Origin: Candidatus Heimdallarchaeota archaeon
GTDB taxonomy: Archaea; Asgardarchaeota; Heimdallarchaeia; JABLTI01
Length of the DNA stretch: 32,000 bases
NCBI GenBank assembly: GCA_030614005.1
Contig: JAUWKS010000013.1
Location: 30,001-62,000 of the forward strand
Direction of reading: 5' to 3'
Shown: in pieces, positions 9,452-15,138 of the stretch
Numbering within the stretch: position 1 is the first letter of the stretch
Layout: each line of letters begins with the position of its first letter
Notes under the pieces: generated by a model
Databases searched by the model: none
The model's input: the letters and a program-made list of their open reading frames with translations, nothing else
Told to the model about the DNA's origin: nothing
Translations under genes and position numbers: made by a program

Positions 9452-11227
9452 CTAAACTTGACTCCTATAGACAATTGCATTCGGTACTCCCGCAATATTA
9501 GCTACGACTATTAATCCGTGCTGTGAAAAGAATTCATGAATGTCAAAGAAATATAGAGTCACTCTTTGAATATCAGTCGTTCGAACAACAACATACGTAC
9601 CTTTTATTGAGAATTTTTCTAAAGTATCACTATCATTCAGTCTCCATATTGGACTTGTAAATTGTGAACGTATGAAAGTAATTGAAATATTTTTATTCAA
9701 ATAAGCGTAACCACCTGTATACCAAACCATTTCTAGAACAATAAGCCTTTCAGAATCTTCTTGTTGCCCTACCCAGTACATTGCATTACAGATGCCTGAA
9801 TTCCATTTCCACATATAGTTTTTCTTAACTAATCCCATATACAATGAAGATGTGCTTAACATAACCAGAAGTAAACCTAAAACAACATATTGAAACTGTT
9901 TTCTTTTAACCAATTTCGAAAATTTGTAAATACCATTAGCAACGAAAAGCATGCCAAGGGGAAGAAAGGTCATTATAAATCTAAATTCTTTATGAGCAAT
10001 GGATGAGAAAATTGCTAACCAATAGAACATTAAAATTAAAACGAATACTTTTGACTTGGTCTTTTCCTTAAAAATAAGTCCAAAAATGAGTAAGAAAAAA
10101 AAGATGAATATGAAGATATAGGCGAAATCAGTGAAAAATCCGGCAAAGTATTGGAACCAGGGAGACGTACCATGATATGCACTATTGCCTTCCACAATAT
10201 TATATCGAAAGTAATTGATAGGCGAATGAAGAAAGGTACCCCAAGTAAATAAATCTAATAATCCCTGGAAGAGAACCATCAAAAATGCTCCCCCACAAAA
10301 ACTTGCTAGAGTTGAAAACGAATTAAGATATTCACCTCTACTTAGAGGTTCATATGTTTTCTCTTTCTTCTTAGCTAACGTTCTAAATGAAATAGCTATT
10401 TTTCTGCAAACATCTACAATAGGTTTGTATAAAATTGCAATTGCTAGAGGTATCCCCATAAGAGCTCCTGGAAATCGTATCATAAAAGATAGTCCTAATG
10501 AAAGTCCGGCAATTGCAGAAAGAGTGACTTTCCTCTTCGCTTTTTCATGTCTTATCGCCTTATAAATTAGAAAAATGCTTAGAAAGAGAAAATCAGAAGA
10601 CAATGAATCTGTCATAGTTCGACTCGCCCAATAAGGGAAAAACCACCAAGTACCACAAATAAATGCACTTATTAAACCAACGATTTTATTAAACATCTCT
10701 TTGCCAAATAGATATGAAACTACAACAGTAATTATTGAGAAAAGAGAAAGAAATAATCGAGCCGAATAAATCAAAACCAATGGATCTGTTATTCCGAAGA
10801 GCATTAGAAATTTATAGACCCCAACAAGTATTAAAACAAAGAACCATGACCTTGCTCCACCAAATCGATAAGCAGTGTTGTATTCCCAAGGAATGGTTTG
10901 ACCTGTTCCATATTCCCCATATATCCAATAATGAATCATTTCAAGCGATTGAAAGACTTCATCAGGATGAACAAACCCTTGGGATTCTTGTGCAGCTAAG
11001 AGACGAAGAAGAATGGATAAAATGATAATAACTGTCAAAGGTAAATAATTGAATATTTTTTTGAAAAACGTTGTACTAACAACATCAGAGAAATTCTTTC
11101 TAGTGGGCATGTGTTCATTCACTTTTTCTTGATCATGAATGGAGAATTGAGTTTTAGTAGGTTGGTCTCCATCGAGCAAAAGCCATTCTCTCCAGTTTAG
11201 GTATACAAGGTTAGAAATATTAACCAT
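9452..11227 (-). CDS. Polyprenol-phosphate-mannose-type mannosyltransferase, GT22 (PIG-B/Alg9-like), multi-pass membrane protein
   Basis: HPDEVFQSLE after the first TM and HKEFRFI late in the membrane region match PIG-B/Gpi10 signatures as I recall them. About 10 or more hydrophobic segments. Start could be a later Met (MPTRK, 11110). Confidence 0.82.
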   Translation of the reverse strand: MVNISNLVYLNWREWLLLDGDQPTKTQFSIHDQEKVNEHMPTRKNFSDVVSTTFFKKIFNYLPLTVIIILSILLRLLAAQESQGFVHPDEVFQSLEMIHYWIYGEYGTGQTIPWEYNTAYRFGGARSWFFVLILVGVYKFLMLFGITDPLVLIYSARLFLSLFSIITVVVSYLFGKEMFNKIVGLISAFICGTWWFFPYWASRTMTDSLSSDFLFLSIFLIYKAIRHEKAKRKVTLSAIAGLSLGLSFMIRFPGALMGIPLAIAILYKPIVDVCRKIAISFRTLAKKKEKTYEPLSRGEYLNSFSTLASFCGGAFLMVLFQGLLDLFTWGTFLHSPINYFRYNIVEGNSAYHGTSPWFQYFAGFFTDFAYIFIFIFFFLLIFGLIFKEKTKSKVFVLILMFYWLAIFSSIAHKEFRFIMTFLPLGMLFVANGIYKFSKLVKRKQFQYVVLGLLLVMLSTSSLYMGLVKKNYMWKWNSGICNAMYWVGQQEDSERLIVLEMVWYTGGYAYLNKNISITFIRSQFTSPIWRLNDSDTLEKFSIKGTYVVVRTTDIQRVTLYFFDIHEFFSQHGLIVVANIAGVPNAIVYRSQV

Positions 11228-11306: not shown

Positions 11307-13427
11307 TTGAGCGACTATATACATACTATCAGCTTCAAAGTTCTCATAGATTCTGAAGTGGTGGATTTTACGTTTAGAGTTCCACGAGGAACGTTGCTAA
11401 TCCAAGTATTGGATGAACTTGAAACAACGCTGAAAATTCAGCCAAGGGTTATTGCTACAGTAAATCATGATGGAGAAATAGTTATTATCGAAAACCATTA
11501 TTCCACCGTTGAGTACCTTATGCAAAAACATGGAACTGATTTTTATGCTGGCGGATCAAGTATTGTGACATTCAATCATGGAGAATACATTATTGATCTA
11601 GAAGTTCCAGAAGCAATTCCATTTGCATCATCCTTTAGAACAGCCTGTAAAAGCTTCTCGATAATGCCAAGAGATGTCTCTATGGAAAGACAAGATGGTC
11701 AAGTGATGGATTATGAAATATTTCGTATGCCCACCGCTTTTGTGCTAAACTCTTGGGGGAATTTTTATCGAATTGTTGATCGCGAATTAGGTGATCCTTT
11801 AATTGATCCACCAAAAGCAGTTGAAGAAGAGTCGCTCACACATACAGAGCAAACTTCTGAAGAAATAAAATCGGAACAAGATTCAATGGTCTACCCACCG
11901 AAATTAGATGGTTCTGAATTAATAGATGCAGCTTCAGTAGTATCTGAAATAGATACTTTGACTGATCATTTTGTTGAATCCTCCTTATCTGATGACCAAG
12001 AAAAACCAACAATTGAATCATTAATGGATGAAATACGTATAGATAGTGAAACCGATTTAGACGATGACGAAGAGGAGTTTATGACTCAAGCAATTGACGA
12101 ACCCTTAGCAGATTCTGTTATTACAGATGTTTCACACATAGAGGAGAAGGAGGAGGAACCTGAAGGCGTTCCCCTAAGTGAAGTGATTGATTTTGACGAT
12201 GAAATAGAAGCTTTAGAGGATGAAACAATTGCTGATGAAGAGGAAGAAGATGATTTAGAAATTTTTGCCCAAGATTATGAAGAAGTAACGGATTTTGAAG
12301 AAGTTGATACTGAAGAACAAATTTCCGATGAATTTGTTGATGAGGATGAAGAGGTCATTGACGATCTTCCAATTGAAGAAACTTCTCCATCATTTGAAGA
12401 AATGATAACAACTTCTGTAATAGAAGAGAAAGTAGAATCAGATGAAGTTGAAGAACCTGAGGAAGAAAAAATAGTTACTCAACCATTTGATGATGAGCAA
12501 TTTATTGATTCAATCAATGATCATTATGTTGAAAAAGATACGAGTGATCAAATACCAGTATTCTCTACTGATGAAACAGAAATAACCGAAGATGTTGAGG
12601 ATGAAGACTTAGACGAAGACCCTCAAGCATTGGATGATTTGACGGAAGATATGGTTATCAAATCCGAAGATATTTTCGAATCTGATCTCAAAGAGATAGA
12701 TGAAGTAACTGAACAACCAGTAGTTGCTCCTATTCAGGATGATTTGTCTTTAGACCAAAGATTAGAGATTAGAAAACAAGAGCTAGTTACTCTTGAAAAA
12801 ATCTTAAGTGAAGAAGAGAAATTAAAAGTAAAGATACAACAAAGGACAATTACCATCGATTATTATGAGAAAATGAATCCACGAAAAATATATCCAATAG
12901 CGGTGAAAATTTCACCTACTACTTCACCTAAACAAAATAAATTCACTGACCAACTAAAGATTGTACCGATATTTCCAGGTTGTTATGTAACTCCCCATCA
13001 AGAAATTATTGAAATAAATGGTGAAAGTGATATTGATACAGAATTCACTGTAACACCTCTAATTAGCAAAGGAATAGTAAATGGAAAACTTGGTATCTGG
13101 TATAAAGAAAGAAATATTCTCAATATCAATACTAGATCAAAAATAAGGAATTATTCGGGTTGCATTGTTAGTAGCATATTGGCATTTCTATTTGGAATTA
13201 TGCCTTTTATGTTTTTAATATTCAATTTTAATTTTAATGAAGCTTTAGCAACTGGAATAAATAACATTCTTTCAACATCATTGACAACTACTTTGTTAAT
13301 GATTATTGAAATAATTCTGTTAGTAGTTTTCCTTGGCCTAATGGTAGGGTTTATTTTCGTAGGGAAACCAGCAAAACGAAAAATAAAACGCAAATTTTAT
13401 CCTGTTGCACCTCAATCTGATGATTAA
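11307..13427 (+). CDS. Membrane-anchored protein: two tandem UFM1-like beta-grasp domains, long acidic disordered linker, short coiled coil, beta-sandwich-like domain, two C-terminal TM helices
   Basis: TTG start with GAGGT SD. aa 7-83 and aa 86-162 each resemble UFM1 (SFKV..S, VP, DG, KHG; LEVPEAIPF, DG, RIVDRELG). aa about 170-475 are D/E-rich. Hydrophobic helices at about 13157-13230 and 13290-13365, followed by a basic tail. Confidence 0.75.
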   Translation: MSDYIHTISFKVLIDSEVVDFTFRVPRGTLLIQVLDELETTLKIQPRVIATVNHDGEIVIIENHYSTVEYLMQKHGTDFYAGGSSIVTFNHGEYIIDLEVPEAIPFASSFRTACKSFSIMPRDVSMERQDGQVMDYEIFRMPTAFVLNSWGNFYRIVDRELGDPLIDPPKAVEEESLTHTEQTSEEIKSEQDSMVYPPKLDGSELIDAASVVSEIDTLTDHFVESSLSDDQEKPTIESLMDEIRIDSETDLDDDEEEFMTQAIDEPLADSVITDVSHIEEKEEEPEGVPLSEVIDFDDEIEALEDETIADEEEEDDLEIFAQDYEEVTDFEEVDTEEQISDEFVDEDEEVIDDLPIEETSPSFEEMITTSVIEEKVESDEVEEPEEEKIVTQPFDDEQFIDSINDHYVEKDTSDQIPVFSTDETEITEDVEDEDLDEDPQALDDLTEDMVIKSEDIFESDLKEIDEVTEQPVVAPIQDDLSLDQRLEIRKQELVTLEKILSEEEKLKVKIQQRTITIDYYEKMNPRKIYPIAVKISPTTSPKQNKFTDQLKIVPIFPGCYVTPHQEIIEINGESDIDTEFTVTPLISKGIVNGKLGIWYKERNILNINTRSKIRNYSGCIVSSILAFLFGIMPFMFLIFNFNFNEALATGINNILSTSLTTTLLMIIEIILLVVFLGLMVGFIFVGKPAKRKIKRKFYPVAPQSDD

Positions 13428-13796: not shown

Positions 13797-14543
13797 TCAA
13801 TGGTATTTTGCATTTGAGCATTTGTTCCTAGATTTAATCTTGATGGAATCAAAGAGCATTGAACCGATATCAATGAATAATAATCTATTAGTTAACAATG
13901 GTTTTTCTTTTAACATAACTCTAGTAGCTTCGGCAATCTGTAAACTACCAATTAACTGTATTATACTCGGATGAATGCCAGTTTCTGCTGAAGATGGAAG
14001 TGCATTATCATCAATATGACCAAATAAACACTCGATACAAGCGCCTCCTCGAACAACTGTCATTACATTCCCTGCTAAACCGCTAACCGCACCAAATAGG
14101 AAAGGTATATCGCTTTCTAAGCATTTCTTGTTAATTGCGAATCTTGATGTGAACCTATCTAAAGCATCAATAACAAAATCAACATTATCAGTTACAAGAT
14201 CAACATTTCTAGTAGAAACCTCTTCTTGAATGATTTCAATTTTAACATCTGGGTTTAGCTTTTCTAAGAATTTTTTAGCCGCATTTACCTTTGGTTTGCC
14301 TACATCCTTTTCACGGTATAGCATTTGTCTTTGTAAATTTGATAACTCAACAATATCTTTGTCAAAAAGTCGCAGGTGACCCACACCTAATGCTGTAAGT
14401 TGAGTTGCAGTAACAGAACCAAGACCTCCAGCTCCAACAATTGAAACTCTTGCTCGTCGAATTTTTTTCATACCCTCAACACCAATTGTTGGGAGATTAA
14501 CAAAACGAGAATATCTGCCTGTAGAAAAATTGTTTTCGTTCAA
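13797..14543 (-). CDS. ThiF/MoeB/HesA family E1-like adenylyltransferase
   Basis: RYSR, VGAGGLGS, DIVELSNLQRQ, GKPKV, DALDRF and CIEC motifs. Likely start is TTG 14543 (in frame with the ORF-track start 14576, downstream of a GGAG and the HD gene stop). Confidence 0.92.
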   Translation of the reverse strand: MNENNFSTGRYSRFVNLPTIGVEGMKKIRRARVSIVGAGGLGSVTATQLTALGVGHLRLFDKDIVELSNLQRQMLYREKDVGKPKVNAAKKFLEKLNPDVKIEIIQEEVSTRNVDLVTDNVDFVIDALDRFTSRFAINKKCLESDIPFLFGAVSGLAGNVMTVVRGGACIECLFGHIDDNALPSSAETGIHPSIIQLIGSLQIAEATRVMLKEKPLLTNRLLFIDIGSMLFDSIKIKSRNKCSNAKYH

Positions 14544-14547
14544 ATCT

Positions 14548-15138
14548 TTATTTCTCCATAAGTAGTTCTTTTGCAAGTTTCTTAACTAAGCTAAATTCAT
14601 AATTGTCAACTTCTTTATTGAAACTAATGAAAAAATCACTAAACATCTCTTTAGAGAGGCCATTTCGAATATAATTGTTCAGCTGAAGAATTGTTTCAAG
14701 ACGATCTGCTTCAGATACAATCCTTGCTTCTATTGATTTCTTTTCCTGAAATTCAGCGAAATATTCTTGCAAAATTTTCCCTTGTTCTTTAGGGAGCTTT
14801 GCAAATAATGATTTTGCCGCATTTTTATCAAGGTCATGTTTGAATGCATCATATTTTTCCGGAGAGAATTTTCTTATGCAACGATTAATATCTTGAGATA
14901 CACTTTCTGAGAGATCATGAATATGGGCCATAATTAGTGCTTTCTCTAGATTGATTTCCTTTCCTTTAGCTTTTTCATCAAAACAGATTAGCATAGTTAT
15001 CATAGTAACAAATTGACTGTGGTCTGCAACACTCTCTACATCTGAAAGCGGAACACCGGAGTAAATCCAACCACTTCTAACAATTCGTTTAAGGCGGATG
15101 GCTTCTTGTAAAAATGACAATAGATTAATTTCATGCAT
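14548..15138 (-). CDS. HD-domain phosphohydrolase (YfbR/HDDC2-like)
   Basis: LKRIVRSGW, ESVADHS, AHIHDLSES (HD) and ADRLE motifs. Confidence 0.9.
   Translation of the reverse strand: MHEINLLSFLQEAIRLKRIVRSGWIYSGVPLSDVESVADHSQFVTMITMLICFDEKAKGKEINLEKALIMAHIHDLSESVSQDINRCIRKFSPEKYDAFKHDLDKNAAKSLFAKLPKEQGKILQEYFAEFQEKKSIEARIVSEADRLETILQLNNYIRNGLSKEMFSDFFISFNKEVDNYEFSLVKKLAKELLMEK

Follow-up and report, generated by a model that had tools for sequence, protein, structure and literature searches.

In a 32,000-nucleotide stretch of DNA from a Candidatus Heimdallarchaeota archaeon (assembly GCA_030614005.1, contig JAUWKS010000013.1, positions 30,001 to 62,000; hereafter the window), we have studied a gene for a protein of 706 residues. 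The protein consists of a head of two consecutive Ufm1-like domains, an acidic tether, an immunoglobulin-like (Ig-like) sandwich and a helical hairpin, and its gene is surrounded by genes for a mannosyltransferase, an Ost5-like protein and a protein resembling activating enzymes (E1) (Table 1). The assigned gene start is supported by the alignment, because the homologues begin with MSGYIHTI.

About 45 full-length homologues, named Heimdallarchaeota or Asgard by their sources, were retrieved in a word-indexed search. They are 640-917 residues long, have an identical layout and share 62-99% identity with residues 1-170. Mean column identity differs between zones of the protein, being 0.80 in the head (residues 1-163), 0.36 in the tether and 0.53 in the charged stretch and C-terminal module. 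In a six-frame search of 300 Asgard genomes, the complete head was confined to one GTDB family (f1), in which it was found in 9 of the 10 sampled genomes as well as in the window's genome, and in two genera. An exhaustive HMMER search with the head profile against 1.84 billion representatives returned only the protein's own family and two bacterial repeat proteins; the latter matches, which lie in repetitive, low-complexity sequence, were judged spurious. No NCBIfam family was found for the 706-residue protein. The gene product is a membrane-anchored protein that is restricted, in the samples searched, to one family of Heimdallarchaeia.

Table 1. Features of the 706-residue protein and neighbouring genes, in window coordinates
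Feature	Residues	Position	Strand	Basis or remark
Whole gene		11307..13427	+	TTG start, stop 13425-13427, 706 residues; open reading frame (ORF) list and translation
Module 1, Ufm1-like beta-grasp without C-terminal tail	1-83	11307..11555	+	hhalign against free archaeal Ufm1-like proteins
Module 2, UFM1-like beta-grasp ending in G162-D163	84-163	11556..11795	+	hhalign against UFM1; Pfam; PDB
G162-D163, invariant dipeptide closing the conserved head	162-163	11790..11795	+	homologue alignments
Polyacidic disordered tether	164-479	11796..12743	+	composition, alignment
Conserved island MVYPPKLDGSE, candidate short linear motif	194-204	11886..11918	+	conservation screen
Charged stretch, helical by composition only	480-512	12744..12842	+	conserved LSLxERLExRKxEL block
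Ig-like beta-sandwich	513-615	12843..13151	+	PxFPGCxVxP and FxITPL motifs conserved; AlphaFold2 model
Hydrophobic helical hairpin, membrane anchor	helices 617-638, 643-655, 661-685	13155..13361	+	model, composition
Basic C-terminal tail	686-706	13362..13424	+	one third Lys+Arg; RKFYP conserved
Helical-repeat protein, 2315 residues		902-7849	-	next to beta-CASP and GT22 genes in all homologous loci seen (2306-2308 residues)
GT22 (Alg9-like) mannosyltransferase		9452-11227	-	divergent from the tandem gene, 79-bp spacer
Ost5-like protein, 72 residues, two-helix		13519-13737	+	Pfam Ost5 33.6 bits, over threshold
E1-like gene, MoeB/ThiF/UbaA-type		13797-14576	-	NCBIfam, PDB

The two modules of the head

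The initial annotation of this DNA described two N-terminal modules resembling UFM1, each ending at a glycine. The ORF, the residue strings that it quoted and the positions of G82-G83 and G162 (11790-11792) are correct in the translation. For comparison with eukaryotic UFM1 in hhalign, a profile was built from an alignment of 15 UFM1 sequences. Module 2 aligns with this profile over 60 columns at 25% identity (probability 87.5%, E = 3.6e-6). Its score of 35 exceeds those of 150 column-shuffled controls (mean 10.7, standard deviation (sd) 2.5, maximum 20.1) and that of the reversed profile (8.3), and the collinear similarity is strongest at the LxVPExxPF...F block. In Pfam, Ufm1 (PF03671) is the sole family matched by module 2, with an E value of 0.029 and 14.8 bits, below the cut-off of 27. 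Relatives of the protein, at 18-20 bits, also remain below this cut-off; module 1 has no Pfam match, and neither module reaches the gathering threshold of PF03671. When the head profile was compared with all PDB sequences, 13 matches were obtained, all of them UFM1 (E of about 0.4), and a single-sequence search of PDB with residues 1-170 gave no match.

Module 1 is also collinear with eukaryotic UFM1, over 53-72 columns, but the match is borderline (score 19-25, probability 6-34%, null maximum 19.5). It is much closer to the free Ufm1-like proteins encoded in a sister family of Heimdallarchaeia (see below), with a probability of 92.5% and a score of 39.2 over 74 columns, against 11.5±2.5 in shuffles. 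The match of module 2 to the free archaeal protein is weaker (score 23.4; shuffles 10.5±2.2). Both modules score only at null level against the 77-residue ubiquitin-like protein of the same genome, and the leads from a language-model atlas (ubiquitin, Rad60-SLD, DUF2604 and TmoB clusters) all stay below 0.9. Profile comparison of the two modules with each other yielded a probability of 1.4%, that is, no detectable mutual similarity, which rules out a recent internal duplication. Since module 1 matches the archaeal protein and module 2 matches UFM1 directly, profiles and models indicate that residues 1-163 comprise two beta-grasp domains that belong to the UFM1 lineage and have diverged, module 2 being the closer to eukaryotic UFM1. 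The resemblance that had been claimed for both modules therefore holds directly for module 2, and for module 1 through the archaeal relatives, its likeness to eukaryotic UFM1 being borderline.

The AlphaFold2 model of residues 1-166 is weak, with a predicted local distance difference test score (pLDDT) of 55.8, because the family alignment is shallow; it contains two beta-beta-alpha-beta-beta-alpha units. A Foldseek search of PDB with the head matched linear di-ubiquitin, FAT10, ISG15, the tandem ubiquitin-like (Ubl) domains of OASL, USP7 HUBL and talin F0-F1 at E values of 1e-4 to 1e-3, and also UFM1 (template modelling (TM) score by target 0.70, root-mean-square deviation (rmsd) 3.2). Among the Swiss-Prot models, the whole head matched integral tandem-Ubl proteins, and for residues 81-166 nine of the ten single-domain matches were UFM1 from plants, insects and nematodes (TM-score by hit 0.59-0.72). 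The exhaustive structural aligner VIA drops low-confidence stretches, so that mainly residues 81-161 were compared. Its best 50 rows are all ubiquitin-like folds, with SUMO, UBX and ubiquitin at Z 8.8-7 and SUMO as the top match (Z 8.8, rmsd 1.8 over 69 residues). The 50 rows for module 2 do not include UFM1, which is not thereby excluded. The proposed beta-grasp fold is thus borne out for module 2, and at low confidence for module 1; its assignment to UFM1 is supported by sequence profiles, but VIA shows no preference for UFM1.

The glycines at the module ends differ in their conservation and context. G82 is invariant, and G83 is variable, with GS, GD, GE and GN found in homologues. G162 and D163 are invariant in 20 of 20 aligned sequences, and likewise in an alignment of 16, and conservation collapses right after them. 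With the shared strand (RII in UFM1, RIV here) as reference, G162 precedes the position of UFM1 Gly83 by one residue. Module 1 ends at F79-Y80, which align with F78-Q79 of the free archaeal protein. The latter continues for eight residues (VINRGVVG), whereas module 1 passes directly into the first strand of module 2. Because module 1 has no tail and runs into module 2, G82 is best read from the alignments as an inter-domain hinge and not as a conjugation site. At the end of module 2, 544 residues follow G162, and the protein has no C-terminal glycine that is free or exposed by removal of a short extension, as in the UFM1 family. The earlier proposal that each module ends at a UFM1-equivalent glycine is accordingly sustained in the invariance of G82 and G162, and not in the variable G83, the tailless module 1 or the offset of one residue at G162.

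Tether, membrane anchor and neighbouring genes

The tether is 316 residues long in the window's protein, with 39% Asp+Glu and a net charge of -113. In homologues, it ranges from 266 to 553 residues with 28-38% Asp+Glu, and is always strongly acidic. The MVYPPKLDGSE island contains the only nine-residue windows of the tether with column conservation of at least 0.6, and its P197 and P198 are nearly invariant. Two other stretches common to most homologues, SEIDxLTxxF (11943-11978) and TIESLMDE (12009-12035), fall below the conservation screen and are candidate docking motifs; a YPWE motif is found in most homologues and not in the 706-residue protein of the window. The charged stretch that follows the tether (residues 480-512) has no proline or aromatic residues and a balanced charge, and its residues 505-512 are coil in the model.

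An AlphaFold2 model of the C-terminal anchor module, built on an alignment of 28 diverse anchor-family members, has a pLDDT of 91.3 and shows an eight-strand sandwich at residues 513-613, followed by helices. Beyond the last helix, residues 689-697 of the tail (model residues 185-193) form a further strand in this model (pLDDT about 87-95). In VIA, the sandwich matches HAP2 domain III, macroglobulin MG, MSP/ASH and PapD-like domains at Z 9.7-8, as a generic Ig-like fold. The hairpin contains no Lys or Arg and no charge except one Glu; within the family of tandem proteins, neither this Glu, in the last helix, nor an Asn in the loop varies. Because there is no signal peptide, the hairpin is otherwise uncharged and the tail is basic, the sequence suggests that head, tether, sandwich and tail are all cytoplasmic.

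A profile of the C-terminal 227 residues found matches in 62 of the 300 Asgard genomes, and no sampled genome of families f1, f3 and f4 lacked one. Most f1 genomes, this one included, have a second anchor-family gene. Other anchor-family proteins have unrelated N-terminal heads and disordered linkers of their own, and the heads of three of them score only at null level against Ufm1 profiles. The anchor module is therefore widespread in Heimdallarchaeia, bearing unrelated heads elsewhere.

The second anchor-family gene of this genome (G000:C90; L064:2104-3420) encodes a protein of 438 residues that is alike in sandwich, hairpin and disordered linker; its head of about 110 residues is unrelated and has no Pfam match. 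In AlphaFold DB clusters, proteins named STAS or anti-sigma-factor antagonist have the whole anchor module at their C-terminus, and the sandwich without the helices is found in proteins with the names TIR, effector-associated domain, CHAT, FHA and vWA. These matches suggest a membrane-proximal module in wide reuse.

Downstream of the tandem gene, on the same strand and at a distance of 91 bp, lies the Ost5-like gene; this order is kept in the second genus and in two long homologue contigs. Each of the four homologous loci examined, that of the most divergent member included, retains the GT22 gene beside the tandem gene. The E1-like gene is on the opposite strand, convergent to the tandem gene, and forms a unit with HD and PAC2 genes. 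It overlaps the HD phosphohydrolase gene and is followed by the gene of the PAC2 proteasome-chaperone family. Orthologues of this E1 lie 2-3 kb from the tandem gene in nine further f1 genomes and in the two long contigs. The adjacency is nevertheless weak evidence of a functional link, because synteny in these two contigs extends over the whole 18-kb block, which runs from the giant solenoid gene to the hydantoinase genes. The most divergent member has a different downstream half of the locus, in which both Ost5 and E1 are absent; upstream, GT22, beta-CASP and the solenoid are kept. The initial annotation had suggested testing whether this E1-like protein adenylates the modules. The protein agrees better with MoeB (116 bits) than with UBA5 (82 bits), and Ser takes the place of MoeB Cys187 in its crossover loop (Ile in the orthologue of the second genus). 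A UFM1-type E1 of the sister family described below reaches 178 bits with UBA5. We therefore rejected the neighbouring protein as a UFM1-type E1; its MoeB/ThiF type, its Ser at the loop Cys position and its convergent orientation also speak against its being the cognate enzyme.

UFM1-type genes in Heimdallarchaeia

The six-frame search also gave weak matches, to module 1 only, in a small ORF of three sister-family (f2) genomes, of which two are closed. The encoded free Ufm1-like protein has 87-88 residues and ends in INRG[VI]VG, followed by the stop or by one residue. In one closed genome (G026, contig 1, about 446.8-451.5 kb; L046:2831-7532), the protein is encoded within an operon, in which genes for an E1, a JAMM protein, the Ufm1-like protein and a UFC1-like conjugating enzyme (E2) occupy L046:2831-5662. 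The E1 is a ThiF-family protein of 287 residues with a CxASLPxT loop, and in PDB it matches UBA5 best (E = 2.4e-51; 178 bits, compared with 91 for MoeB). The JAMM/MPN+ protein has 352 residues (Pfam JAB, 32 bits). The small Ubl protein, 87 residues ending in RGVVG, matches Pfam Ufm1 with an E value of 0.06 and is aligned to the very end of the model. The E2, of 193 residues, passes the Pfam UFC1 cut-off of 25 with 26.1 bits, and its PDB matches are only UFC1. An EAP30-like winged-helix protein and an SPFH protein are also encoded. Judged from these sequences, the operon appears to be a compact UFM1-type tagging cassette in Heimdallarchaeia.

In a further family, a 302-residue open frame (L042; G092:C18) has a Ufm1-like unit (...QRSQVG-SKE...) in frame before a UFC1-like protein. 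It could be either a fusion precursor of tag and E2 or an artefact of assembly or reading.

The UFC1-like protein was found in 10 of the 82 genomes of the class (f2, 7/30; f3, 2/12; f5, 1/1) and in none of the 12 genomes of f1. In all 12 f1 genomes, the best match to the UBA5-type E1 has at most 36% identity. In the window's genome, which is 90% complete, no orthologue of this E1 was found (three ThiF paralogues have 32-35% identity), nor an orthologue of the operon JAMM protein, nor any match to UFC1 (PF08694). Peptidase_C78 (PF07910), the UFSP-type protease, gave only a sub-threshold match there (E = 0.015). The Pfam models of UFL1 and DDRGK gave sub-threshold winged-helix matches only, and these models also respond in control genomes. 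A search of f1 with the head profile found no free Ufm1-like gene. The f1 genomes are metagenome-assembled and 64-92% complete, so that these enzyme absences are to be read as "not found" and not as proven absence. Three JAB/MPN proteins are encoded in the window's genome.

The ubiquitin-like protein mentioned above, of 77 residues, lies about 19 kb upstream of the tandem gene (L017:1486-1719, minus strand; G000:C123:22269-22502), is over the Pfam ubiquitin threshold and ends in RTEGG. Among the ORFs within 3 kb of it, which were not scanned, no E1, E2 or RING protein is apparent, and one of them resembles dihydroorotate dehydrogenase.

Docking or tagging, and comparison with known systems

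The head is probably a non-conjugated, integral docking module on a membrane anchor. This is the simplest reading, because the two domains are strongly constrained and mutually different, and matching enzymes were not found. That the domains are integral rather than detachable is indicated by the tailless module 1, the variation of G83, the lack of repeat character and the 544 residues that follow G162. The two Ufm1-like domains would stay attached and act as permanent non-covalent docking surfaces, and the polyacidic tether would hold them at a distance from the membrane of as much as a few hundred residues. Candidate partners include proteins descended from ancestral Ufm1 recognisers, namely winged-helix proteins like UFL1 and DDRGK1 or ribosome- and translocon-associated factors; an AAA+/proteasome system is another candidate. 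A membrane scaffold that displays UFM1 folds, one of the two roles offered in the initial annotation, fits well with the two modules, the acidic tether and the confidently modelled anchor. More speculatively, the uncut head might mark the membrane with UFM1 in a non-covalent and genetically fixed way (a "UFM1 mark"), its gene lying beside genes linked to glycosylation and the translocon (Ost5, GT22).

Several points weigh against docking. For the partner there are candidates only, and the membrane topology is predicted from sequence. The fold of module 1 is supported at low confidence only, by its order of strands and helices and by two-domain matches to di-ubiquitin and ISG15. The models taken alone point to beta-grasp domains with no preference for UFM1 over SUMO or UBX. 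The absence of enzymes is weakened by incomplete genomes and by sequence searches that could miss very diverged enzymes. The three JAB/MPN proteins could in principle process a precursor, and the lack of an E2 does not exclude tagging, as conjugation in the SAMP/UbaA system is E2-independent. Above all, the invariant G162-D163, within one residue of the conjugating glycine of UFM1, is unexplained by pure docking and looks like a processing site.

These last points lead to a rather unlikely alternative, in which the protein is a membrane-tethered precursor of two fused Ubl domains. A protease, for example a JAMM protein, would cut after G162 and release a tag of about 18 kDa like ISG15 or FAT10; the glycine would then be adenylated, for which the adjacent MoeB/ThiF-type E1 is a possible enzyme, and would be attached without a dedicated E2 in the manner of SAMP. 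It would account for the invariant G162-D163, for the collapse of conservation after it and for the near coincidence with UFM1 Gly83. ISG15 and FAT10 are among the top structural matches, and the E1-like gene stays within 2-3 kb in nine further f1 genomes and two long contigs. JAB/MPN proteins are available in the genome, and the in-frame QVG-SKE unit in another family suggests that fusion precursors may exist. However, the adjacent E1 has Ser for the loop Cys, is convergent and is missing at the locus of the most divergent member, and its adjacency counts for little within a syntenic 18-kb block. Neither UBA5- and UFC1-type enzymes nor the operon JAMM protein were found in the family. In addition, the anchor family carries non-Ubl heads, which argues for a display role of heads in general. 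Nor is an Asp that invariably follows the Gly known as a feature of Ubl processing sites. That a cut after G162 frees a two-domain tag of the UFM1 lineage, a counterpart of ISG15 and FAT10 activated without a UFC1-type E2, is on the whole unlikely.

It is very unlikely that the head is a generic tandem beta-grasp protein, such as a ubiquitin-like or UBX-like adaptor, whose resemblance to UFM1 arose by convergence or chance. The shortfall in Pfam (14.8 against 27 bits), the E value of about 0.4 in PDB sequences, the precedence of SUMO, UBX and the TBK1 ULD over UFM1 in VIA and the lack of relatives outside the family in the exhaustive HMMER search all count in favour of such a protein. The profile scores, however, lie about 10 sd above shuffles when module 2 is compared with UFM1 and likewise when module 1 is compared with archaeal Ufm1, and the gene of the latter stands between those of a UBA5-type E1 and of a UFC1 homologue. 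Furthermore, UFM1 was the sole family in the Pfam and PDB sequence searches although PDB holds far more ubiquitin and SUMO chains, it supplied nine of the ten single-domain structure matches in Swiss-Prot, and the ubiquitin-like protein of the same genome compared only at null level. The other role offered initially, a poly-UFM1 precursor cut after G82/G83 and G162 into two separate modifiers, agrees with the invariance of G82 and G162 and with the UFM1 lineage of both modules, but it is highly improbable given that G83 is not conserved, that module 1 ends at the start of its last strand so that a cut at G82 would leave an E1 no flexible tail, that the modules are mutually dissimilar, unlike those of poly-ubiquitin-type precursors, and that UFSP-, UFC1- and UBA5-type genes were not found in the genome or its family.

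A 2026 study, also available as a preprint, reported Asgard Ufm1 homologues in nine clades by structure-based search (PMC12962969). Some of these hits are not full-length or have "multiple hit regions", and long disordered parts were trimmed from the models (PMC12962969). A survey of 2023 had regarded UFM1 and UFC1 as restricted to eukaryotes (PMC10183829). In the literature, we have not found a tandem, tethered and membrane-anchored UFM1-like architecture described, nor its occurrence in a lineage without the enzymes; the novelty once claimed for the protein is to be tempered, Asgard homologues of Ufm1 having been published.

The protein represents a third state in Heimdallarchaeia: its UFM1-lineage domains are hard-wired to an anchor in a family whose genomes yielded none of the tagging enzymes. 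In sister families, a free tag is retained together with enzymes of the UBA5 and UFC1 types. If docking is the role of the head, a UFM1 fold can be recognised non-covalently at a membrane without any dependence on conjugation, and the head would be a simple bait for archaeal proteins that recognise UFM1. If the protein is instead cut at G162, the product would be the first prokaryotic two-domain Ubl tag, and the archaea closest to eukaryotes would possess a protein-tagging system of a new kind. Either reading is a modest extension of known biology and opens no new category.

In eukaryotes, UFM1 tagging takes place at the membrane of the endoplasmic reticulum, on translocon-bound ribosomes, and its origin is debated. 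The head resembles UFM1 (PF03671) in its beta-grasp fold, in its collinear similarity and in a glycine that falls, where module 2 ends, no more than one residue from the conjugating position. It differs in that two non-identical modules are fused on a membrane protein of 706 residues, module 1 being tailless, with sub-threshold Pfam scores. The free archaeal tag has 87-88 residues, the INRG[VI]VG end and co-encoded enzymes; for the tandem protein, neither the tail nor the enzymes were found.

Two consecutive beta-grasp domains also occur in the modifiers ISG15 and FAT10 and, as integral parts, in USP7/USP40 HUBL, Cobl, talin F0-F1 and OASL. The TM-scores of these tandem matches, 0.3-0.4, reflect domain orientation and the weak model, and no sequence relation was shown. 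In ISG15 and FAT10, the Gly-Gly is terminal or followed by a brief extension, and the E1 and E2 are dedicated ones, whereas the head has no terminal Gly-Gly; neither a conjugatable Gly-Gly nor such enzymes were found here, the adjacent E1 being of MoeB/ThiF type without the loop Cys.

HERP/HERPUD1, Usa1, Ubx2/UBXD8, TMUB1 and Dsc3 carry an integral, cytosolic Ubl or UBX domain on a membrane anchor, often a hairpin whose two ends are cytosolic, and recruit cytosolic machinery. The tandem protein likewise has its Ubl domains within a larger polypeptide that bears a membrane anchor, in one ORF and with a layout kept in about 45 homologues. It differs from these proteins, to which no sequence relation was shown, in its UFM1 lineage, its two domains, its polyacidic tether of about 300-550 residues and Ig-like sandwich, and its archaeal host. 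By analogy, the head may recruit cytosolic machinery to the membrane as HERP/Usa1, Ubx2/UBXD8 and TMUB1 do.

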